A stretch of 64,000 bases of DNA from Bacteroidota bacterium (lineage in GTDB: Bacteria > Bacteroidota > Bacteroidia > JACCXN01), in contig JACCXN010000009.1 of assembly GCA_013696965.1 (NCBI GenBank), forward strand, positions 6,751 to 70,750, read 5' to 3'. Positions 4,446 to 52,099 of this stretch are shown here, one piece after another. The notes beneath the pieces were generated by a model that was given only the letters and a program-made list of their open reading frames with translations, made no database searches and had not been told where the DNA came from. How positions within the stretch are numbered: the stretch's first letter is position 1; every line of letters begins with the position of its first letter. The position numbers and the translations under genes were made by a program.

Positions 4446-5312
4446 TCATTGTTCTACTTTCATAATTAAAAACATTCCATTTGGATGAATCCCTCCTCCT
4501 GAAACTGCTACTAAATTATGATCATGCACGCTGTATTCTCCAATTTTATCGGGAACCAGTTCCAGAACCATTGCATCCATCCTCCTAAAAGGAAAAGTAT
4601 CTTTAGACCATCCTATTTGGTGATTCTGATTGGAATAAATGATGTTGCAATGAAAACCATGGAAATGTAAAGAATGGGCTGCCTGGCCTGTATTGGCTAT
4701 AAAAATATGAATTGTATCTCCTACATTACATTTTACCCTTGCGGTTGTATCGTTTTGCAAATCGGGAAAACTCTTACCATTAATAGTAAAATAATCAGGA
4801 TTGTACTGAGTCCAATCCACTGTATTGTTTTCAGAAATCAGGGTGTTAAATTCTGATTGAAAATCTTTTAAATTCCAGTAGTATTTTTTGGAAGTTGAAT
4901 TGTTTACACAAATCATTCCACCCGCTCCCATGTTTTTGTAATTGGGATATTGATATTCATCATAATAAATGTAAAGCCCTTGAGCAGCAAAAGTTAGAGT
5001 ATCAGTTATGGAATCTGCAGGACTAATTGTGGCATTAACACCTGAAAAGCCTTTAATATTAAAACCATGAATAATTGTGTCGTTGTTTATTATTTTAATT
5101 ACAAGTGTATCGCTGGTTGTACAGCTTATCACTGTATTTAATGAAACAAATGAACCTGTTTCATTAAATACAAAGCAAGGAAAAGTTGTGTTATTTACAG
5201 TTGTAAAAGTTCCTGAATTAATAAACAGTGTCTGATTTTTTATCGCAGCACTACTGTTAATTACAAACAGCAATGGCAAACAAGTCAAAAATAATTTTAT
5301 ACTTAATTGCAT
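4446..5312 (-). CDS. Secreted cupredoxin / multicopper-oxidase-domain protein; it is shorter than a full three-domain oxidase.
   Basis: Signal peptide MQLSIKLFLTCLPLLFVINSSAA. Copper-ligand-like motifs HSLHFHGFH and HDHNLVAVSGGGIHPNGMFLIM. Its loose paralogy to the 2908-4128 protein is visible in the NPDYFTINGKSFP versus PDYFLINGKSEQ stretch. Confidence 0.6.
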   Translation of the reverse strand: MQLSIKLFLTCLPLLFVINSSAAIKNQTLFINSGTFTTVNNTTFPCFVFNETGSFVSLNTVISCTTSDTLVIKIINNDTIIHGFNIKGFSGVNATISPADSITDTLTFAAQGLYIYYDEYQYPNYKNMGAGGMICVNNSTSKKYYWNLKDFQSEFNTLISENNTVDWTQYNPDYFTINGKSFPDLQNDTTARVKCNVGDTIHIFIANTGQAAHSLHFHGFHCNIIYSNQNHQIGWSKDTFPFRRMDAMVLELVPDKIGEYSVHDHNLVAVSGGGIHPNGMFLIMKVEQ

Positions 5313-26334: not shown

Positions 26335-27030
26335 TCAGAATTTTTTTTTGGGTACTGTGCTTACAAAATCTTTTAAATAATAGGGTTCAAAATAAGCGGT
26401 ATCTACGAACATCCTTTTATTAAAAGAGTTTTCTGCAAGAGGCGCCATTGTTGCAGATGATGGATAAACCTCATTCAAAAAAAAAGCATTTGGATTAGCT
26501 CCTAACAGATCTTTGCATTTTTGAGAACCATCTCCAAAAAAATATATTTTGTTCCTAGCCAAAAGATCATTAAAAGAATCATCCTGAATAATTTTAGCCT
26601 CAATTTCTTGTATCAGTACATTTTCTTTATTAAAAACAGCACAGTATACCTCCATTCTCCTTGCATCAATCATTGGGCAAAAAAGAACATCAGGGGAAGT
26701 ATTTTTTAATTTTAAAGCAGCAGACAGAGCCATTTGTTGCAATGTACTCACAGCTATAAGTGGAATATCAAGGGCATAACAAAATCCTTTTGCTGCAGAT
26801 ACCCCTATTCGTAATCCTGTATATGAACCTGGGCCCATGCTTACTGATATTGCGTGCAGCCTATCCATTGTAAGGCCAGCTTGTTTTAATACATCAGAAA
26901 CAAAAACAGTAAGTTTTTCAGCATGTGCATACTCTCCGTGATGTTCCTTTATTGCAACTACTTCTCCATTGTTAGATATGGATACAGAACAGACCTGAGT
27001 AGCTGATTCCAAATTTAATATTAACGCCAC
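26335..27030 (-). CDS. tsaB: tRNA threonylcarbamoyladenosine (t6A) biosynthesis protein TsaB (YeaZ).
   Basis: MALILNLESATQVCSVSI…MGPGSYTGLRIGVSAAKGFCYALDIPLIAVSTLQ is the TsaB/YeaZ signature; 231 aa. Confidence 0.85.
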   Translation of the reverse strand: MALILNLESATQVCSVSISNNGEVVAIKEHHGEYAHAEKLTVFVSDVLKQAGLTMDRLHAISVSMGPGSYTGLRIGVSAAKGFCYALDIPLIAVSTLQQMALSAALKLKNTSPDVLFCPMIDARRMEVYCAVFNKENVLIQEIEAKIIQDDSFNDLLARNKIYFFGDGSQKCKDLLGANPNAFFLNEVYPSSATMAPLAENSFNKRMFVDTAYFEPYYLKDFVSTVPKKKF

Positions 27031-27035
27031 CTAAT

Positions 27036-28364
27036 CTATTTCCTTTTAATTATTTCTTCCTCTTCAATTTTCAATACCACAGGGTCGCCTTCTTTAAGGG
27101 TTTTGGAAACCAAAGAATAGGGACCGGTTATTATTTGTTCACCGGCATTGATTCCAGAAACAATTTGAATGAATTTATTATCCTGAATACCAATTTTAAC
27201 TTTTTTCATTACAGCTTTATCATTTTCCATCACAAATACACATTCCTGCATTACCGGGTCCACTTTAGCACTGTTGCCTGCTTTTGTTTTTTCTAAACTT
27301 GTGGCAGCAGTATCCTCCCTGGTAGTTACCGCCTGTATAGGTACGCTAATAACATCATATTCGGTTTTGGTTTGTATTTCAACCGTTGCAGACATTCCTG
27401 GTCGAAAAGGAGAAAGATGTGGCTTGTCTTCAAGAATTAAATCTGAATAGGAAGAGCGTAGGATCCTTATCCTTACTTCAAAATTAGTAACCTGGTCTGC
27501 ACTTAAACCAAAAGTTTTAGCTGAGTTGGCAATCTGAGTGACTATCCCTTTAAATTTCCTGTCTTTATACGCATCAACTTCAATAATAGAAGTATCTCCA
27601 ACCATAATCCTAACAATATCATTCTCGTTAACATCCACCTTCACCTCCATTTCTTTCAAATTTGCAATGCGCATCATCTCTGTACCTGCCATTTGTAAAG
27701 TTCCTACCACCCTTTCGCCCTGCTCAACATTAAGCATGGAAACGGTACCATCCACCGGGGCGAAAATAGTTGTTTTAAGCAAATTGTCACTTGCTTCTTT
27801 TACAGAAGCCTCTGCACTTTTCACATTATATTGGGCTGCAATAATACTTTGGTCAGCAGACTCTACTTCTGCTCTTGCAACCTCATAGGCTGATTTTGCC
27901 GCATCAAATTCAGATTCAGAAATTGCCCCGTCCTTAAATAAAGATTGATTTCTTTTGAAGATGGCCTCAGAATTTAAAAACTGGGCATTTGCCTGTGATA
28001 ATCTTGCTTTTGAATTTGCAAGATTAGCTTTAGTTGTATTTAAAGCCGCAACCATTCTTTCCCGCATGGAGAGATAGATATCAGGATTTATTTTTGCCAA
28101 AAGTGTTCCTTGTTTTACTTCCTGGCCTTCCTTTATCAAAAGTTGAACTATTTCACCAGAAACATCAGGACTAATTTTTACCTCAACCTCGGGCTGTACC
28201 TTTCCATTTGCTGAAACAGTTTCGATAATTATTTTTCGCTCGGATAATTCCATGACCACTGATTCTGCCTCATTTGTCATTTGTTGATTAACTATAACTC
28301 CAACAAATAAAACAACTCCTGCAATAAGAAAATACCAGTAAGTTTTAATTTTTTTTCCTGCCAT
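27036..28364 (-). CDS. Efflux periplasmic adaptor (HlyD/MacA-family membrane fusion protein).
   Basis: N-terminal TM anchor, long coiled-coil hairpin (…LANSKARLSQANAQFLNSEAIFKRNQSLFKDGAISESEFDAAKSAYEVARAEVESAD…), beta-barrel C-terminal domain. Confidence 0.85.
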   Translation of the reverse strand: MAGKKIKTYWYFLIAGVVLFVGVIVNQQMTNEAESVVMELSERKIIIETVSANGKVQPEVEVKISPDVSGEIVQLLIKEGQEVKQGTLLAKINPDIYLSMRERMVAALNTTKANLANSKARLSQANAQFLNSEAIFKRNQSLFKDGAISESEFDAAKSAYEVARAEVESADQSIIAAQYNVKSAEASVKEASDNLLKTTIFAPVDGTVSMLNVEQGERVVGTLQMAGTEMMRIANLKEMEVKVDVNENDIVRIMVGDTSIIEVDAYKDRKFKGIVTQIANSAKTFGLSADQVTNFEVRIRILRSSYSDLILEDKPHLSPFRPGMSATVEIQTKTEYDVISVPIQAVTTREDTAATSLEKTKAGNSAKVDPVMQECVFVMENDKAVMKKVKIGIQDNKFIQIVSGINAGEQIITGPYSLVSKTLKEGDPVVLKIEEEEIIKRK

Positions 28365-28378
28365 AACTCTATTCTTTT

Positions 28379-29815
28379 TTATTCTAATACCAAAGGTTTT
28401 CCCTGGTAAAAATCCAGTACTTTCAACTTAAAAATATAATCGTACTTGGCCTGAAGCAAATTGGATTCAGCATTCACCAAACGATTTTTAGCATTGTTGT
28501 ATTCAATCGCATTTAACATTCCCACATTAAAACGTTGTTCAGCATATTTAAAAGATTCCTTAAGTGCTTCCATTGATCGTGCAGTTGCATGGTGTTTTTT
28601 CAATGCAGCCACTGCATCGGCATGGGCCTGTGTCACTGTTCTGCTTAGTTGCAATTCGGCAAGTTCTAAATTATATTGAGCATTGTAACGTGCAATTTTT
28701 GCTCTTGAAACAGCCGAGCGAGTTTGAAGTCCGTTAAATATTGGAATAGTCATGAAAAAACCAATTGATTTGTTGTAATTCTCATTAATTTGATCATTAA
28801 AAGGAATTGGCTCAAAAACAGGGTTGAATGCAGGAGTAACAACAAGTTCCTGGGTGTTTGCCGTATAACCTATGGTTTGAAAACCATCCGGTTCAGCTCC
28901 AATCAGCCGCTGTCTTAATCCTGAATAACCTGTTCCTAAAGCTCCATTTACAAATATTCTTGGGCTTATTCCACCTTTTGCAATTGCAACTCCCTTATCT
29001 GAACTTCTAACTCGGGCTTGTGCACTTTTAATTTCAGGCATTTCCTTTGCAGCATAGGTAAAAATAGTCTCTGGACTAGCAGTTAATATGTCTCCAACAG
29101 GAAGTTGCAGAATAGGTCTTACTATATTTAATTCCTTATCAAGCGGCAAGGCTAAAAAATGCCTGAGTGACAAGTAGGCCATATCCAATTGATTTTGAGA
29201 ATTTACAAGGTTCAATTCTTCGGTAGCTAATTGTGCTTCCACTTCCAGAAGACTTCCCCTGGCAAGAGTTCCGGCCTCAACAAGCCTGGTGGTTCGCTTT
29301 ACCTGCTGTGTTGTAATGTCAACCTGATTAATTGCAATTTGCATTAATTCCTCACTAAATAATATCTGCAAATAAGCAGTGGCAATGCTAAGAGAAATAT
29401 CGTTTTTTATTCTTTCTGAATCATACTTGTTTGCCTGGTATTCAAGCTGTCCCTGCTTTATGCTATTTACGTTTTGAAAGCCACTAAACAAATTCAATCC
29501 TCCGGTTAAGGAAAAATTATTCGAACGAATCATGTCATCCGCAAATTGATTTGTAAAGGGATCAATGGTGCGTCCAAAATTATATGAATGTGATGCATTT
29601 CCATTTACACTTGGAAGGGAATTAGCTCTGTTTTGCCATGAATTTACATTGGCCAATTCAATGTTCAAATTAGCCTGCTTTACCTGTATGTTATGTTCAA
29701 GAGCATAATCAATGCATTGTTTCAAATTCCATTTCTCCTGTGAAAAAGAAATGATTGTTGTAAAGGATAAGAGCAACGAAAGCCAAATAGTGCTGTTTTT
29801 CTTAATCAGGTTCAT
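28379..29815 (-). CDS. TolC-family outer-membrane efflux channel.
   Basis: Signal peptide, two tandem coiled-coil/beta repeats typical of OEP/TolC (…ANKYDSERIKNDISLSIATAYLQI…, …NLELAELQLSRTVTQAHADAVAAL…); 478 aa, 14 nt upstream of the adaptor gene. Confidence 0.85.
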   Translation of the reverse strand: MNLIKKNSTIWLSLLLSFTTIISFSQEKWNLKQCIDYALEHNIQVKQANLNIELANVNSWQNRANSLPSVNGNASHSYNFGRTIDPFTNQFADDMIRSNNFSLTGGLNLFSGFQNVNSIKQGQLEYQANKYDSERIKNDISLSIATAYLQILFSEELMQIAINQVDITTQQVKRTTRLVEAGTLARGSLLEVEAQLATEELNLVNSQNQLDMAYLSLRHFLALPLDKELNIVRPILQLPVGDILTASPETIFTYAAKEMPEIKSAQARVRSSDKGVAIAKGGISPRIFVNGALGTGYSGLRQRLIGAEPDGFQTIGYTANTQELVVTPAFNPVFEPIPFNDQINENYNKSIGFFMTIPIFNGLQTRSAVSRAKIARYNAQYNLELAELQLSRTVTQAHADAVAALKKHHATARSMEALKESFKYAEQRFNVGMLNAIEYNNAKNRLVNAESNLLQAKYDYIFKLKVLDFYQGKPLVLE

Positions 29816-29930
29816 TTATCTTTTGATCTTTTGGAAATAAATAGAATTACAAATGTAAATATACTTAAAGCAAACAATTGTGACCCGGAATACTTAATGA
29901 ACGGATTTAAATGATTATGAATGGCATTAA

Positions 29931-29956
29931 AAAGCCCCGTTAAATAACGGGGCTTT
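29931..29956. terminator. Strong intrinsic-terminator hairpin with an 11-bp stem AAAGCCCCGTT/AACGGGGCTTT, a 4-nt loop, and U-tracts on both strands (5 U on minus, 4 U on plus).
   Basis: The perfect GC-cored inverted repeat is read directly. It lies 315 nt downstream of the PAS-SpoIIE stop (minus strand) and 115 nt upstream of the tolC start. Confidence 0.5.
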
Positions 29957-29991
29957 TCATCCTTTTTAACTCTACAAGTAAACAGTAAAGC

Positions 29992-30033
29992 TTCAGTAGT
30001 CAAAATGAAAATTAATTCATTTTGACTACTGAA
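29992..30033. repeat. 18-bp perfect inverted repeat TTCAGTAGTCAAAATGAA-(AATTAA)-TTCATTTTGACTACTGAA.
   Basis: Read directly, with no mismatch over 18 bp; it sits in a 315-bp non-coding gap. No U-tract follows on either strand, so it is unlikely to be a simple terminator. Confidence 0.6.
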
Positions 30034-30270
30034 AGGTTTGAAATCTGTTTTACTGATAAAGTCTTATCGGAATTAGACATTTGAACCCTCCTTTCTATTT
30101 GTTAGACATAAGATTAGAAGCATGGGTAAATATCTTATAACCTGCTTTCAAACCCTGTAACAACCGTTACTATTATAAAACGCAGTATTTTTATTTTAAT
30201 TTTCAAAAGATTTCTTTTTTTTGAAACAGATTATTAAACGGTTTTATATAACTTCCTTATCTAAAAGTGC

Positions 30271-31422
30271 TCAAATCCCAATTCCAATTATCAAAATATC
30301 ATCGGTTTGCTCCTCCTCCTGTTTCCAATTTGTAAGGGCATAATCAAGAAAGCTTTCCTGCTCATCAGCTTCCATTTCATTAATTGTCAAAAGAAGGTCC
30401 TTAAATCTTTTCCGGTTGAGTTTTTTTCCCTGTTCACCTCCGAATTGATCGGCATAACCATCAGAAAAAAAATAAAAGGAATCATCCTGCTGCAATGGAA
30501 TTTCCACTGACTCAAATGACTTCACAACATCCTGATAAAAACCAATAGGATACCGGTTTCCTTTGACCTCAAGAACTTCTTGATTTCTTACATATAGCAA
30601 GGTTCTGAATGCACCTGAGTAAGTAAGTACTTTCTTGTCGAAATCAAAAACCCCTATTGCTACATCCATCCCATCACTTGTTACAGTTTTACCTGAACGA
30701 TTAATTGCCGTAAACAATTCCTCATCAAGAAAACGTAAAATTTGGGCAGGATCGTTTGTTCCTCTTTTTACTACAATATCCTTTAATAAAGAATTACCAA
30801 TTACTGACATTAAAGCTCCCGGAACTCCATGGCCAGTACAGTCCACGGCAGCAACAAACACTCTGTTTCCTGTTTTATAGTGAAAATAAAAATCACCACT
30901 TACAATGTCTTTTGGATTATAATAAACAAATGCTTTTTTAAAAGAGGCCTTAATGGAATCTATATCAGGCAAAATTGCTTCCTGGATTGTTTGTGCGTAT
31001 TTCAGACTATCCAGTAGTTCAGAGTTTTTCTTTTGCAATTCTCTGTTTTTTTCCTGTATCCTTTCTTCGGCAATTTTTCTTTCGGTAATATCATAACCAA
31101 TGCCAATAACGCTATTATCTGGGCCTTTGGATGGGCTCCACAATATCCAGCGTTTTTCTCCCCTTGCAGTTTTGAATTCTCTTTCAAAAGGAGCAGGTAG
31201 AACCTCTGACTGAATCATTAATTTCACCTCCTCCTTTACATGAATCATTTCAGCCGCATTTTTCCGGGTTAAATTAAACCAACCCTGGCCATTTAAAATT
31301 TCAGGAGAAACCCCAAGCGCTTTTGAAACAGAAGGACTAACATAATCAAGTTTACCTTGATTGTTAATTACAACAAGGAGTGTATTGAGTTTTTCAAGTA
31401 TTATATCAGATATAACAGTCAT
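30271..31422 (-). CDS. PAS-domain sensor fused to a SpoIIE/PP2C-type serine phosphatase.
   Basis: N-terminal PAS (…LVVINNQGKLDYVSPSVSKALGVSPEILNGQGWFNL…), a linker coiled-coil, and the phosphatase signature IVSGDFYFHY…AAVDCTGHGVPGALMSVIG…FFSDGYADQFGG. Confidence 0.85.
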   Translation of the reverse strand: MTVISDIILEKLNTLLVVINNQGKLDYVSPSVSKALGVSPEILNGQGWFNLTRKNAAEMIHVKEEVKLMIQSEVLPAPFEREFKTARGEKRWILWSPSKGPDNSVIGIGYDITERKIAEERIQEKNRELQKKNSELLDSLKYAQTIQEAILPDIDSIKASFKKAFVYYNPKDIVSGDFYFHYKTGNRVFVAAVDCTGHGVPGALMSVIGNSLLKDIVVKRGTNDPAQILRFLDEELFTAINRSGKTVTSDGMDVAIGVFDFDKKVLTYSGAFRTLLYVRNQEVLEVKGNRYPIGFYQDVVKSFESVEIPLQQDDSFYFFSDGYADQFGGEQGKKLNRKRFKDLLLTINEMEADEQESFLDYALTNWKQEEEQTDDILIIGIGI

Positions 31423-31751
31423 AACAAAAATTATTTAGCCTCTAAAGGCTTTAAAAAAGAAAAAAAAGAGAAAAAAATCGGGATTGCCTTTTAAAGGCGG
31501 TCAATTATTGATGAATGGAACAATAACGCATTCGATTATGCCAGGGGGTTGGCATCGAATTATAATAAATTGCGGTATTGTTTTTCATTTTCATTACTAA
31601 ATCAGGGTGCAATGTTAAAAGAAATTAATCGATTATGCAAATTACCAATAAAGGATTTGTCCTTTAAAATTCCTGGAACTTAATCCCCTAATTATTTATT
31701 ATCCTGTTGAATTCCCACTACAACAGTACTCCTGGAGTTTTTTAGCAATAA

Positions 31752-31813: not shown

Positions 31814-34800
31814 TCAATAACTAAGATTGCTACTTAGCCATTTTTCAATTTCAGTTACAGGCATGTTTTTTCTTTTAGAATAATTTTCAACCTGTTCTTT
31901 TGTAATTTTTCCAAGGCCGAAATATTGGGATTCAGGATGAGAAAAATACAAACCAGAAACCGAAGAAACAGGATACATTGCCATGCTTTCTGTAAGATTA
32001 ATCCCTGTTGTTTTCTCTACTTCAAAAAGTTTGAATTGCAATACTTTTTCTGTATGGTCAGGACAGGCAGGATAACCTTGTGCTGGCCTAATTCCCCGGT
32101 AATTTTCTTTAATAATGCTTTCCTTATCCAGCTCTTCATCCTTTGCATAACCCCAAAACTCTTTCCTTACTTTAAGATGCATTAATTCTGCAAAGGCCTC
32201 TGCAAGACGATCGGCAAGAGCTTTTAACAGTATTGAATTGTAATCATCATGATCTTGTTCAAATTGCTGCACCCATTTTTCCATGCCAATACCAGTAGTT
32301 ACAGCAAATCCTCCAATATAATCAGTTACACCGGAATCTTTTGGAGCAATAAAATCAGACAAAGCAAGATTACTATGGCCCTGAGGTTTCAAAGTCTGCT
32401 GCCTAAGGGTATGTAACACTGTTTTAACTTTCCCAGATGGCTCATCATCATAAATAATAATATCATCATTTGTGGAATTAGCAGGATAAAAACCTACTAC
32501 GGCATTGGCTTGTATCCATTTCTCATTAATAATCCTTGAAAGCATCAGCTTTGCATCATTATACAATTTTGTTGCTTCCATTCCTTTTTCAGGATCGCTT
32601 AAAATTTTAGGATAACTTCCCTTCATCTCCCAGGTATGAAAAAATGGAGTCCAGTCAATAAATTCAGCAATTTGATCTAAGGGAAAAGCTTCGAAAAATT
32701 TATTCCCTATAAAAGCAGGTTTTTGTATTTGTGTTTGTTCCCAATTAATTTTAAGTTTATTTCTGCGTGCCTGATCCAAAGAAATGAATTTAACAGCTGA
32801 ATGCGCATTCTTGTTTGCTTCCCTTAATCGTTCATATTCAACATTTGTCTTTTCCAAAAAATCAGCCCTCAAGTGATCAGATAATAAAGTGCTGGCAACA
32901 GTAACACTCCTTGATGCATCGTTTACATGAACAACAGGCAAAGAGTAACAGGGAGCTATTTTAACAGCTGTATGAACCTTTGAAGTAGTTGCCCCGCCAA
33001 TTAACAAAGGCACCTTGAATCCTTGTCTTTGCATTTCTTTGGCAACATGTACCATTTCATCAAGAGATGGAGTAATTAAACCACTCAAACCAATAATATC
33101 AACATTTTCTGCCCTTGCAGCCTCCAGAATTTTTTCGGCAGGAACCATTACCCCCAAATCAATTATTTCGAAATTATTGCAAGCAAGCACCACCCCTACT
33201 ATGTTTTTTCCTATATCATGCACATCCCCTTTCACAGTAGCTAAAAGCACTTTCCCTGCATTTTTTGAAACATCGCTTGCTGATTTTTCTGCCTCAAGAA
33301 AGGGGAGTAAATAAGCCACTGCTTTTTTCATTACCCTGGCGCTTTTTACAACCTGTGGTAAAAACATTTTTCCTGATCCAAACAAATCCCCAACCACATT
33401 CATTCCCTCCATCAAAGGCCCTTCAATAATATGCAAGGACCTGTCAAATTTCTTCCTTGCTTCATCTAAATCTTCTTCAATATAATCTACCACGCCCTTT
33501 ACCAAAGAATGTGTGAACCTTTCTTGCAAATCAAGTTTTCTCCAGGACAAATCCTTTTCTATCTTTTTTCCTTCTCCTTTTAGCGTTTCTGCATAGGTAA
33601 CCAGCGTTTCTGTTGCATCCTCTTTTCGGTTCAATAAAACATCTTCTACTAGTTCAAGTAATTCTTTTGGAACCTGGTCATAAACCTGCAACATTCCAGG
33701 ATTTACTATTCCCATATCCATTCCCGCTTTAATTGCATGATAAAGAAAAGCAGAATGAATGGCCTCTCTCATTAAATCATTGCCACGAAACGAAAAAGAA
33801 ACATTACTTACTCCCCCACTTACTTTTGCTAATGGAAGATTCTTCTTTATCCATTTTGTAGCGTTAAAAAAATCAAGTGCATTTAATTTATGTTCATCCA
33901 TTCCTGTTGCAACAGGAAAGATGTTTGGATCAAAAATTATATCCTGGGCAGGAAAGTTAAGTTTATCTACCAAAATAGAATAAGCTCTGCTGCATATTTC
34001 TATTCTTCGCTCGTAGGTATCAGCCTGGCCTTTTTCATCGAAGGCCATTACGATTACTGCTGCTCCGTATCTTTTTACTTTAAGGGCCTGATCAATAAAC
34101 ACTTTCTCTCCCTCTTTCAAACTTATGGAATTAACAATTCCTTTACCCTGTACACATTTCAAACCTGCTTCAATCACATTCCATTTTGAAGAATCAATCA
34201 TAATTGGAAGTTTGGAAATATCAGGTTCTGCAGCAATAAGGTTAAGAAATTTTACCATCGCAGCTTCAGAATCAATCATACCTTCATCCATGTTCACATC
34301 AATAACCTGTGCGCCACCTTCAACCTGGTCTCTGGCAATGGCAAGGGCACCCTCATAATCCCCTGAAGTAATTAATTTAGCGAATTTCCTTGAACCAGTA
34401 ATATTAGTTCTCTCACCTACGTTCATGAAATTGCTTTCCTTTCGCATTGTTACGGGCTCTAATCCACTTAACCTTAACAAAGATTCAATAGCAGGTACAA
34501 TCCGGGGCTTACCTTTAGCAGCAGCTTCAGCAATATGCCTGATGTGATCAGGAGTTGTTCCGCAGCAGCCTCCCACAATGTTTACAAATCCACTTGAAAT
34601 AAAATCATGAATATGCCCGCACATATCAGAAGGAGATTGGTCATACTCACCAAATTGATTTGGCAATCCGGCATTTGGATATGCACTGATATAAAATGGT
34701 GATTTTTGTGAAAGCTCTTCAATATAAGGGCGCATATCAGCTGCTCCAAGTGCACAATTCAATCCTATACTAAGCAAACCTAAATGAGATACTGAATTAA

Positions 34801-35479
34801 TAAAAGCCTCAACTGTTTGTCCGGACAATGTTCTTCCACTGGCATCTGTTATAGTTCCAGAAACCATTACAGGAAGTCTCTTTCCACAAAATTCGAAATA
34901 GCTATCAAGGGCATAAAGGGCTGCTTTGCAATTCAGGGTGTCAAAAACAGTTTCTATCAAAACTAAATCTACCCCTCCCTCTATTAGTCCTTTGGCTTGA
35001 ACAGTATATGCATCAACCAATTCATCAAATGTAACTGCACGATATCCCGGATCATTTACATCAGGAGACATAGAGGCTGTGCGATTAGTGGGGCCAATAG
35101 CCCCAGCTACAAAACGTGGTTTATCTGGATTTAACAGTGTAAATTCTACTGCTGCCTTTTTTGCTATAACTGCAGAATTAAAATTAAGTTCATAAGCAAG
35201 TTCTTGCATATCATAATCTGCAAGGGAAATAACATTGGCATTAAAAGTATTGGTTTCAATAATATCTGCCCCGGCATTAAGATATGCTTTGTGGATGGCC
35301 TCTATAATTTCGGGTTGGGTGAGTGATAAAAGATCATTATTACCTTTAATATCTTTATGAAAATTTTTAAATCTTTCTCCACGGTAATCTTGTTCTGTTA
35401 ACCTGTAATCCTGAATCATGGTACCCATTGCACCATCAATTACAAGTATCCTTTTTTCTAATTCTTTATTTATATTCAC
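31814..35479 (-). CDS. metH: Cobalamin-dependent methionine synthase with all modules: Hcy-binding, pterin-binding, B12-binding and AdoMet activation.
   Basis: N-terminus [25 protein letters not shown]…; cobalamin-binding DxHxxG region (…[15 protein letters not shown]…); 1221 aa. Confidence 0.95.
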
Positions 35480-50942: not shown

Positions 50943-51383
50943 ATATGATTTATTTAGGGGGTTACAAATTAAAGCCGCTCCAAAATTATCCTTGCACATT
51001 CAATAACAAATTCAAGAAGAAACAAAAAATGAATCTTTAAATTTTTACTATTTTAGTGTGTAAAGATCAAATCATATATTTAGTGTTTTATAGAAAGGTT
51101 AAAAAAATAGTAATTGTACTAATTTTAAAATTTCGAGAACCCTAAAAAAATCAAGGTTGAATAAATTTCTTTAACTTGTATTACGAAAAACTAAAAGAAA
51201 CAGTTTCTAAAAAAGGTGTTTTTATATCTAAAGTGAAACTTTTAAGCAATTCAAAGTAAAAACACAATTAGGCCTTTGCCAAAAACGATGCGTCTTTTGC
51301 GGAAATTCCAATCATTTCTCTTTAAAGAGGCTCATTAAATAAATATATAAAGCCCAGGAATAAGGTTAAGTTAAACAAAAAAA

Positions 51384-51411
51384 AGCGTCTGTTCAAAATT
51401 GAACAGACGCT
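51384..51411 (-). terminator. Intrinsic terminator after the second TonB gene: 11-bp stem AGCGTCTGTTC/GAACAGACGCT, 6-nt loop, then 8 U on the minus-strand transcript (an A-run on plus makes it bidirectional in form).
   Basis: CAAAAAAAAGCGTCTGTTCAAAATTGAACAGACGCTTAAAATTT read directly; 26 nt downstream of the stop. Confidence 0.6.
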
Positions 51412-51436
51412 TAAAATTTCTATTAAATCTAAAGGC

Positions 51437-52099
51437 TTATTTTAAAACAAATCTTATTGGCAAATTGTATTGAACTGATACTGCCTTTCCTCTTTGTTTA
51501 CCAGGAGACCATGCAGGCATTTTTTGAACTACGCGTACTGCTTCATCATCCAATCCTTTCACTCCCCTTAATATTTTAACATCCTTTACTTTACCGTCAG
51601 ATCCAATAACAAAAGTAACATAAACTGTTCCTTGAATACCTGCATCCTTAGCCATTTGAGGATATTTCATTTCATTACCCAGAAATTTAAACAATGCTTC
51701 TTCACCACCTGGAAAAGAGGGCATATTTTCAACTATCGTAAAAATTTCATTTTCAACAATTACCTCATCTTTTTGCACAATATCAACAAATGTTGATTGA
51801 TCGGCTTCGGATTCCTTTATTTCAACTTCGTTTTTAATTACAACATCATCTTCCACTACTTGTAATTCTATAACTGCAGGAGGAGGAGGTGGGGGTGGTA
51901 ACAATTCTGGCTGAGTTATAGGAATCATTTCTTCCTCTGTCTGGTCAATAACTAATTGGCCAAGATCCGCCAGGCTACCTTCGTAGCTTTTCCATTCTAA
52001 ACCTATTAATACTAAACCAAGGGAAACAACAAGACCTATTTGAAGAAACAGGGATCTCTTTTTTTCAAGATCAGCATTAGGATTTTTCTTTAATTCCAT
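51437..52099 (-). CDS. Energy transducer TonB (paralog of 50244-50942).
   Basis: MELKKNPNADLEKKRSLFLQIGLVVSLGLVLIGLEWKSYEG…PPPPPPPA…GIQGTVYVTFVIGSDGKVKDVKILRGVKGLDDEAVRVVQ… is collinear with the upstream paralog. Confidence 0.75.
   Translation of the reverse strand: MELKKNPNADLEKKRSLFLQIGLVVSLGLVLIGLEWKSYEGSLADLGQLVIDQTEEEMIPITQPELLPPPPPPPAVIELQVVEDDVVIKNEVEIKESEADQSTFVDIVQKDEVIVENEIFTIVENMPSFPGGEEALFKFLGNEMKYPQMAKDAGIQGTVYVTFVIGSDGKVKDVKILRGVKGLDDEAVRVVQKMPAWSPGKQRGKAVSVQYNLPIRFVLK

Follow-up and report, generated by a model that had tools for sequence, protein, structure and literature searches.

Introduction

Ribosomes of the Bacteroidia do not recognize Shine–Dalgarno (SD) sequences, the tail of their 16S rRNA being sequestered by the proteins bS21, bS18, and bS6, and extended SDs of 9–13 bp with energies below −13 kcal/mol are distinctive of rpsU, the gene for bS21, in this class (PMC9976891, PMC13000457, PMC13000453). 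Initiation on an extended SD needs bS21 to be absent or released, single mismatches in the SD abolish initiation, and normally more than 10% of ribosomes are without bS21 (PMC9976891, PMC13000457, PMC13000453). In the published view, SD-dependent control in Bacteroidia is essentially confined to rpsU, at least in Flavobacteriales. Here we describe an element of approximately 240 nt on the minus strand of a 64,000-nucleotide stretch of contig JACCXN010000009.1 (hereafter, the window), an AT-rich sequence (~34% G+C) from a metagenome-assembled genome of an uncultured member of the Bacteroidota. The element lies between the gene for a PAS-SpoIIE/PP2C phosphatase (SpoIIE) and tolC, which codes for a TolC-family outer membrane efflux protein. 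It is an undescribed structured RNA that carries a small open reading frame (sORF) with an extended SD of the rpsU class, from which we infer a function and a link to bS21-free ribosomes.

The initial annotation of the window had described an untranslated gap with an 18-bp perfect inverted repeat and a terminator hairpin, and had proposed either a structured RNA or small RNA (sRNA) ending at the terminator or an operator in the regulatory region of tolC. The structured RNA portion of this proposal is upheld by the conservation of the unit, by covariation, and by retention of the unit in the absence of either neighboring gene, whereas the portions that concern an untranslated gap, an operator, and the tolC region are not. 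The palindrome and the terminator are best explained as two parts of one small minus-strand gene that extends from approximately position 30170 to 29929. We judge the odds to be slightly better than even (a probability of about 0.55) that this is an autonomous structured RNA gene of ~240 nt whose sORF is translated in an SD-dependent manner.

Results

A conserved unit occupies the gap between the SpoIIE and tolC genes

The gene borders are those given by the initial annotation, with the SpoIIE stop codon at 30271 and the tolC ATG at 29815, and the intergenic gap measures 455 bp (29816–30270) rather than 315 bp. Homologous regions from relatives were recovered by using TolC and SpoIIE as anchors, and the unit (~30170 to 29929, ~240 nt) was present in five related lineages, comprising that of the window and four others. 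The latter are represented by loci L012, L013, L014, and L022 (TolC 80% and SpoIIE 82% identical; L013 and L022 are the same contig), L015 (TolC 72% identical), L019 (SpoIIE 67% identical), and L024 (SpoIIE 79% identical), where the contig ends inside the element and provides only the 5′ half. The unit measures ~240–280 nt in all lineages with a mean column identity of 78%, and a profile built from it finds one copy per locus. Read 5′ to 3′, the RNA would comprise the hairpin domains P1 and P2, a ribosome-binding block, the sORF, the hairpin P3, one segment of a helix that we call helix B, and the terminator.

An invariant extended SD precedes a 22-codon sORF

An ATG-initiated ORF of 22 codons plus TAA (30080–30012, minus strand; product MSNSDKTLSVKQISNLSVVKMN) was overlooked when the gap was said to show no protein-like ORF. 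This ORF is preceded by AAGGAGGG; read on the minus strand, TAGAAAGGAGGGTTCAAATG stands just before it. The most conserved part of the entire unit is a 33-nt translation-initiation block, TGTCTAAC(A/T)AATAGAAAGGAGGGTTCAAATGTC (30076–30108, minus strand), which covers positions −28 to +5 relative to the ATG, is identical bar one position in the window, L012–L014, L015, and L019, and is matched by L024 as far as the end of its contig.

Within this block, the extended SD AGAAAGGAGG (30087–30096, minus strand; positions −17 to −8) makes 10 contiguous Watson–Crick pairs with the canonical Bacteroidia 16S 3′ tail, CCUCCUUUCU, a sequence taken from the literature and general knowledge and not from this genome. 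The duplex has a computed energy of −16.7 to −17.7 kcal/mol, and the SD is invariant in all copies. The upstream regions of the 42 window ORFs of at least 150 aa yielded a median of −1.9 kcal/mol and a best value of −7.8 kcal/mol against the 16S tail. Judged by these 42 ORFs, the genome is otherwise SD-less, and the strength of the SD before the sORF is exceptional in it. Equally strong SD-like sites elsewhere in the window precede no plausible gene start, and those that were placed lie inside ORFs. By its pairing, its energy, and its distance from the ATG, AGAAAGGAGG belongs with the extended SDs of the rpsU type (9 or more contiguous pairs, or an energy below −13 kcal/mol), with the difference that the product is a 22-aa peptide instead of bS21. 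No bS21-like ORF or rpsU gene is present in the window.

The sORF is constrained mainly at the nucleotide level

The ATG and TAA codons occupy homologous positions in all four complete copies of the element, and the sole indel in the sORF is one of 3 nt that maintains the frame (L019, 21 aa). The description of the gap as untranslated is therefore probably incorrect, given that an sORF with conserved start, stop, and frame follows an invariant extended SD. However, the peptide itself is only loosely maintained. Nine of its 22 residues are invariant, position 21 is either Met or Ile, and positions 8, 13, and 16 are recurrently hydrophobic, but the peptide is 50–55% identical between taxa whose neighboring proteins are 67–82% identical. 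The proportion of nonsynonymous differences (pN) for the sORF is 0.21–0.28 and that of synonymous differences (pS) is 0.11–0.36, with pN as high as or above pS in five of six pairwise comparisons, such that the signature of purifying selection on amino acids (pN much below pS) is absent. For the SpoIIE gene alongside, pS is 0.66–0.81 (near saturation), pN is 0.11–0.20, and pN/pS is 0.16–0.25. Because the synonymous sites of the sORF are far more conserved than those of the SpoIIE gene and the peptide is weakly constrained, selection acts mainly on the nucleotides (RNA pairing and ribosome binding) and less on the peptide. This pattern fits a regulatory sORF or a dual-function RNA, and it is compatible with a noncoding RNA as well.

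The peptide has no match among Pfam or NCBIfam families, and its exact sequence is absent from a collection of 15 billion proteins. It is hydrophilic by inspection, and thus lacks the hydrophobic or transmembrane character of a type I toxin. Several other ORFs that overlap the element were set aside. In L014 (317–621), an automatic gene caller assigned ORFs of 59 and 41 aa to the element, neither of which has a counterpart in the window, and a 63-aa TTG ORF of the window (29812–30003), which runs over the terminator and the tolC promoter, is not conserved between lineages; all are taken to be spurious. Such likely spurious calls could hide the element in annotations.

Covariation supports the folded RNA

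The 261-nt region that includes the unit folds at −84.8 kcal/mol, compared with −47.9 ± 4.5 kcal/mol for shuffled sequences (z = −8.2). We assessed covariation with an RNAalifold consensus on the alignment of four sequences, using 500 shuffles and slid alignments as controls. In the consensus, 93.7% of cells are paired and 14 pairs are changed on both sides, compared with 6.0 ± 1.8 for the shuffles (none of the 500 reaches 14) and 2–5 for the slid controls. These compensatory changes are concentrated in P2 (helices 3 and 4) and P3 (helix 7). The initial annotation had suggested a conservation and covariance analysis of the gap, and the 14 compensatory pairs in a unit conserved across five lineages bear out the structured RNA.

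P1, at the 5′ end of the conserved unit, is a 5-bp hairpin, GTAAC-GGTT-GTTAC (30157–30170, minus strand; helix 2), in which all cells pair, with a C-G to U-A change in L019 and one wobble change in L015. It is followed by P2 (30109–30156, minus strand), a domain of two stacked helices with conserved loops (UAUAA...UAUUUA) directly upstream of the ribosome-binding site, in which both sides are changed in 7 of 13 pairs and 97–100% of cells are paired. Upstream of P1 by 5–8 nt, after an A-rich tract, is a motif of the TG(C)GTTTTA type (TGCGTTTTA; 30176–30184, minus strand), which reads TG(C)GTTTT(A/T) in the window, L012, L015, and L024 and GTGTTTAAA in L019, and which is possibly a noncanonical promoter element or a 5′ boundary. 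A sigma-70-type sequence of the window (TTAAAA-16-TATAAT) was rejected as the promoter because it is not conserved in relatives.

Two further helices involve the sORF. In helix A (RNAalifold helix 6), GGAGGGUU on the SD side pairs with ACAUUU..AACCUUUC within the sORF, where an anti-SD segment, ACAGAUUUCAAACCUUUC (30031–30047, minus strand), is the partner of the SD and the start codon. Its 14 pairs (95% of cells paired) show no variation and hence provide no covariation evidence. The duplex energy, −11.2 to −13.5 kcal/mol, is reached by 0–1 of 300 shuffles in three of the four taxa and by 25 of 300 in the window. Helix B joins GACUUUAUCAGUAAAACAG (30045–30063, minus strand; sORF codons 6–12) to CUGUUUACUUGUAGAGUU (29968–29985, minus strand; RNAalifold helix 8), a strand that follows P3 and could instead fold into a short local hairpin with the sequence immediately upstream. 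Its duplex energy ranges from −10.5 to −18.6 kcal/mol in the four taxa, which 0–3 of 300 shuffles reach, and L019 alters both strands (UUUUAUCAAA and UUUGAUAAAA). Helices A and B cross each other and are mutually exclusive unless a pseudoknot forms. As modeled from four sequences, they may constitute a two-state switch between a “closed” helix A state and helix B.

A search of the whole window with Rfam 15 produced no matches at the gathering threshold, and the best subthreshold score was 35 bits against a threshold of 100. Resemblances at permissive thresholds were dismissed as generic hairpin-plus-terminator matches.

The palindrome and terminator belong to the same unit

The 18-bp perfect inverted repeat at 29992–30033 is present as originally reported, with 18-nt arms at 29992–30009 and 30016–30033 and a 6-nt loop, and in the RNA a G-U pair lengthens the stem to 19 pairs. 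It is the longest perfect hairpin of the 64-kb window, where 100 first-order Markov simulations gave longest arms of 9–14 nt. We regard it as the RNA hairpin P3 (29991–30034, minus strand), whose 5′ arm is formed by sORF codons 16–21 and whose conserved loop, AAUUAAUU, holds codon 22 and the TAA stop. The arm sequence is different in every lineage (GTAGTCAAAATGAA in the window, GAAAAAGAGATAAA in L012, and GAAAGCCTGATAAA in L015, for example), and the hairpin is kept in place with the stop codon in its loop. Both sides are changed in 5 of 12 pairs, and the fold energies for the four individual sequences are −25.6, −13.1, −14.4, and −10.4 kcal/mol.

A dispersed repeat or miniature inverted-repeat transposable element was rejected as the origin of the palindrome, there being no second copy in the window or in the loci of relatives. 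The only further match to its arm in the window has three mismatches: the 18-mer TTTAGTAATGAAAATGAA (31584–31601, minus strand) in the MetH–SpoIIE intergenic region. This 18-mer would in theory let the P3 3′ arm pair with the 5′ leader of SpoIIE, but a match of this kind is no better than chance (expected number per window, 0.14).

The 3′ end of the unit is the intrinsic terminator AAAAGCCCCGUUA-UU-UAACGGGGCUUUU plus U (29929–29957, minus strand), for which the initially assigned position of 29931–29956 was right to within 1 nt. Its 13-nt arms (29930–29942 and 29945–29957) include six G-C pairs and are followed on the minus strand by a U run. It has the usual characteristics of an intrinsic terminator, with 12–13 pairs of which six are G-C, a loop of 2–4 nt, and then UUUUU, and each of the four complete copies retains it, one pair being compensatory and the loop varying in length (helix 9).

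The unit is retained independently of its neighbors

Upstream of the element, L015 has the C terminus of MetH (80% identity) and not SpoIIE. The PAS-SpoIIE gene that would stand between the two has been lost by deletion (L015 994–1100), leaving a degenerate remnant of ~50 nt from its 3′ end, and the element, which is intact, thus does not simply travel with SpoIIE. In L019, the element begins ~30 nt after the SpoIIE stop codon (measured to P1) and is followed by a convergent cdaA gene instead of tolC. The tolC genes of the sample from which L019 derives (L017, L026, and L027) and that of L016 have no element upstream; which of L017, L026, and L027 holds the tolC gene of the L019 genome has not been established. 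Because the element is intact after the loss of SpoIIE in L015 and where tolC is missing downstream in L019, the unit is kept independently of both neighboring genes. Ancestrally, the order was apparently MetH, SpoIIE, element, TolC.

The profile finds no copy in the distant tolC or SpoIIE loci L016, L017, L020, L021, L025, L026, and L027. A scan of metagenomes with TolC recovered distant tolC loci only, all without the element. When the 20-nt core TAGAAAGGAGGGTTCAAATG was sought in 185,579 species-representative genomes, only the known relative and one chance hit in Bacilli were found, and the element therefore seems limited to a narrow, uncultured clade of Bacteroidota, as far as such sequence searches reach.

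Neighboring genes and other hairpins of the window

On the minus strand, the order of genes is MetH (31814–35479), SpoIIE (30271–31422), the 455-bp gap, tolC (28379–29815), a gene for an HlyD-type adaptor (27036–28364), and TsaB (26335–27030). The window TolC and SpoIIE proteins have 100% matches that are labeled “Bacteroidetes bacterium.” The tsaB gene lies directly 3′ of the TolC–HlyD pair (window 26335–29815). No gene for an inner-membrane pump or ATP-binding cassette (ABC) transporter adjoins TolC–HlyD in the window, L012, or L027; the gene for the transporter partner must lie at another site.

Among the perfect inverted repeats of the window, the second in length is TGTATTTAATGAAACA-AATGAACC-TGTTTCATTAAATACA (5133–5172), with 16-bp arms and an 8-nt loop. 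It falls within, or at the beginning of, a 288-aa ORF from a mechanical listing (4446–5312, minus strand). A 13-bp perfect hairpin containing G+C, AAGCGTCTGTTCA-AAAT-TGAACAGACGCTT (51383–51412), near the 3′ end of the ORF at 51437–52099 (minus strand), looks like another intrinsic terminator.

Discussion

As read from the sequence, the sORF of this autonomous RNA gene would be expressed and translated, with initiation dependent on pairing between the SD and the anti-SD (ASD) of 16S rRNA. By analogy with rpsU, such pairing would be possible only where bS21 leaves the 16S tail of the ribosome free, and thus bS21-free ribosomes could be the translators of the sORF. Access to the SD might be gated by the mutually exclusive helices described above, with helix A pairing the SD and AUG to CCUUUC in the sORF. 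Given the poor constraint on the peptide sequence, the output that matters is more likely to be the act of translation, the conformation or stability of the RNA, or a loosely constrained short amphipathic peptide than a conventional protein. A more ambitious proposal is that the “specialized” ribosomes of Bacteroidota, which are bS21-free and SD-dependent, have in the element a second natural client. Its mini-ORF would be translated only with a free 16S tail, and the RNA or its peptide would report or respond to ribosome composition. We offer this only tentatively and consider it somewhat improbable.

Two other explanations would tie the element to the efflux genes. In one, the palindrome is a DNA operator bound by a dimeric repressor of the efflux operon, as its perfect dyad symmetry in the window might suggest; in the other, the unit is a leader-peptide attenuator that governs transcriptional read-through into tolC–hlyD, for which one can cite the presence of the sORF, hairpins, terminator, and tolC on one strand in the window, L012, and L015 and the weak, subthreshold Rfam resemblance to leader families, which amounts to generic hairpin-plus-terminator matches. 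However, between the terminator and tolC lies a conserved box resembling a direct repeat, CCATTCATAA-N10-TCCGTTCATTAA (TCCGTT; window 29924–29894, minus strand), which is kept upstream of tolC with or without the element (e.g., in the L016 and L017 tolC loci). Downstream of the terminator and ~35 nt before the tolC ATG, the window and L012 also share a perfect Bacteroidota −7 box, TACATTTG (29857–29850, minus strand). Because the upstream box is independent of the element, which occurs without tolC just as tolC occurs without it, both explanations fail, and the element does not regulate tolC in cis. For the operator, the half-site sequence changes among relatives while pairing is kept, and the palindrome is missing from the promoters of orthologous tolC genes (L016, L017, L026, and L027), lies upstream of the −7 box at a distance of ~135 nt, with a terminator between the two, and has no adjoining TetR-, MarR-, or similar regulator gene, all of which makes this original suggestion scarcely credible. 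The placement of the unit in the regulatory region of tolC is likewise contradicted by its position next to a convergent cdaA gene in L019. The upstream box is a better candidate than the palindrome for the binding site of a regulator of the efflux operon. The attenuator is very unlikely for the further reasons that the conserved −7 box intervenes between terminator and tolC, that no run of regulatory or repeated codons is present, that neither the sequence nor the predicted folds include an antiterminator pairing with the terminator 5′ arm, and that the stop codon is ~55 nt from the terminator; moreover, no downstream operon is conserved with the element, given L019 and the tolC loci that lack the element.

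The remaining alternatives accept the RNA and dispute its translation or its independence. A purely noncoding sRNA, acting in trans or binding a protein, could carry the SD, ATG, and ORF incidentally or as a structural or seed motif and yield no peptide. This would accommodate synonymous sites as constrained as nonsynonymous ones, a peptide that diverges more than its neighbors and lacks family match or annotation, covarying helices across a unit that ends in a terminator, and a GGAGGG tract that could pair intramolecularly with CCUUUC or, for example, with a C/U-rich target. Nevertheless, the most conserved stretch is precisely a ribosome footprint (−28 to +5), whose perfect 10-bp complementarity to the 16S tail stands at canonical spacing from an ATG; start, stop, and frame persist through a 3-nt indel in all four complete copies; the Met/Ile restriction and recurring hydrophobic positions noted above also speak against it; and the helix A partners never vary, such that intramolecular pairing alone is undemonstrated as the cause of the invariance. 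We therefore view a noncoding RNA as a real but lesser possibility. The RNA might instead belong to the upstream gene (SpoIIE, or MetH in L015) as its structured 3′ UTR and terminator region, acting only in cis on mRNA stability or 3′-end formation. There is no terminator between the upstream gene and P1, a distance of ~30 nt in L019, and no conserved canonical promoter box. However, an invariant SD, ATG, and ORF shell would be superfluous in a stabilizer, the element survives intact after the deletion of SpoIIE in L015, and SpoIIE homologs at 57–62% identity do without it. Co-transcription also fits an SD-dependent sORF, as a second cistron, and thus the 3′ UTR explanation, which differs only in denying the element its own function, appears unlikely.

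Several considerations nevertheless weigh against an autonomous RNA gene with a translated sORF. The SD complementarity rests on a canonical tail, the genome’s own 16S 3′ tail and rpsU being outside the window. Values of pN/pS near or above 1 with few synonymous changes are also expected of a noncoding structured RNA, an open frame of 22 codons in AT-rich sequence is stop-free with roughly 20% chance, and the TAA may have been kept as a motif of the loop and not for termination. With only four sequences that are complete, all of them related, the covariation counts are small and partly shared by descent, and the unvarying helix A speaks neither for nor against the model. Because no canonical Bacteroidota TAnnTTTG box is positionally conserved upstream of P1, the RNA may be a 3′ extension of whichever gene is upstream and not an independent transcript. 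In addition, according to published surveys, rpsR and several further ribosomal protein genes have SDs, albeit weaker ones, in some Bacteroidia orders, and the uniqueness of rpsU was demonstrated mainly for Flavobacteriales.

If the sORF is indeed translated as proposed, the element would be a second, independent reporter of ribosomes with a free ASD, and ASD-based control in Bacteroidota would reach beyond rpsU autoregulation in a manner overlooked by surveys of annotated genes. Published genome screens for extended SDs used annotated genes, and therefore an unannotated ORF of 22 codons would have escaped them, which suggests that further such elements be sought in intergenic regions. For annotation of this locus, the findings correct a plausible but wrong connection between the palindrome and regulation of the efflux operon.

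The closest parallel is the translation-initiation region of rpsU. In both cases, the SD occurs in an SD-less Bacteroidota genome, with 10 bp and approximately −17 kcal/mol here versus 9–13 pairs and below −13 kcal/mol in rpsU, and the SD–ASD helix spans approximately −17 to −8 here versus −20 to −8 in rpsU. The invariance of the SD is also consistent with the reported intolerance of single mismatches. In contrast to rpsU, the product is a 21–22-aa peptide unrelated to bS21 with no obvious autoregulatory loop, the initiation region is embedded in a structured RNA of ~240 nt with a potential SD-sequestering helix rather than preceded by a 25-nt leader, the element is confined to a few uncultured lineages, and dependence on bS21-free ribosomes would hold here by analogy.

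Bacteria also possess dual-function sRNAs and structured transcripts that bear sORFs, such as SgrS/SgrT, RNAIII/hld, and SR1/SR1P. Like these, the element appears to be a short, terminator-ended transcript with conserved secondary structure and an sORF that has its own ribosome-binding site, but it has no sequence or Rfam relationship to them, and its peptide is much less conserved than its RNA. Leader-peptide attenuators (the Phe, Trp, and Thr leaders of Rfam and Bacteroid-trp) share with it an sORF, hairpins, an intrinsic terminator, and alternative pairings that involve the sORF. Yet its best scores against Rfam leaders are 19–33 bits versus gathering thresholds of 41–55, and it lacks their regulatory codon runs, antiterminator, and conserved downstream operon. 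Finally, the element resembles SD-sequestering switches, including riboswitch expression platforms and RNA thermometers, in having a covarying 5′ domain, a downstream anti-SD able to mask the SD and AUG, and a competing helix. Unlike such switches, it matches no ligand or aptamer class in Rfam, its sequestering helix lacks covariation, and the ORF under putative control has just 22 codons.

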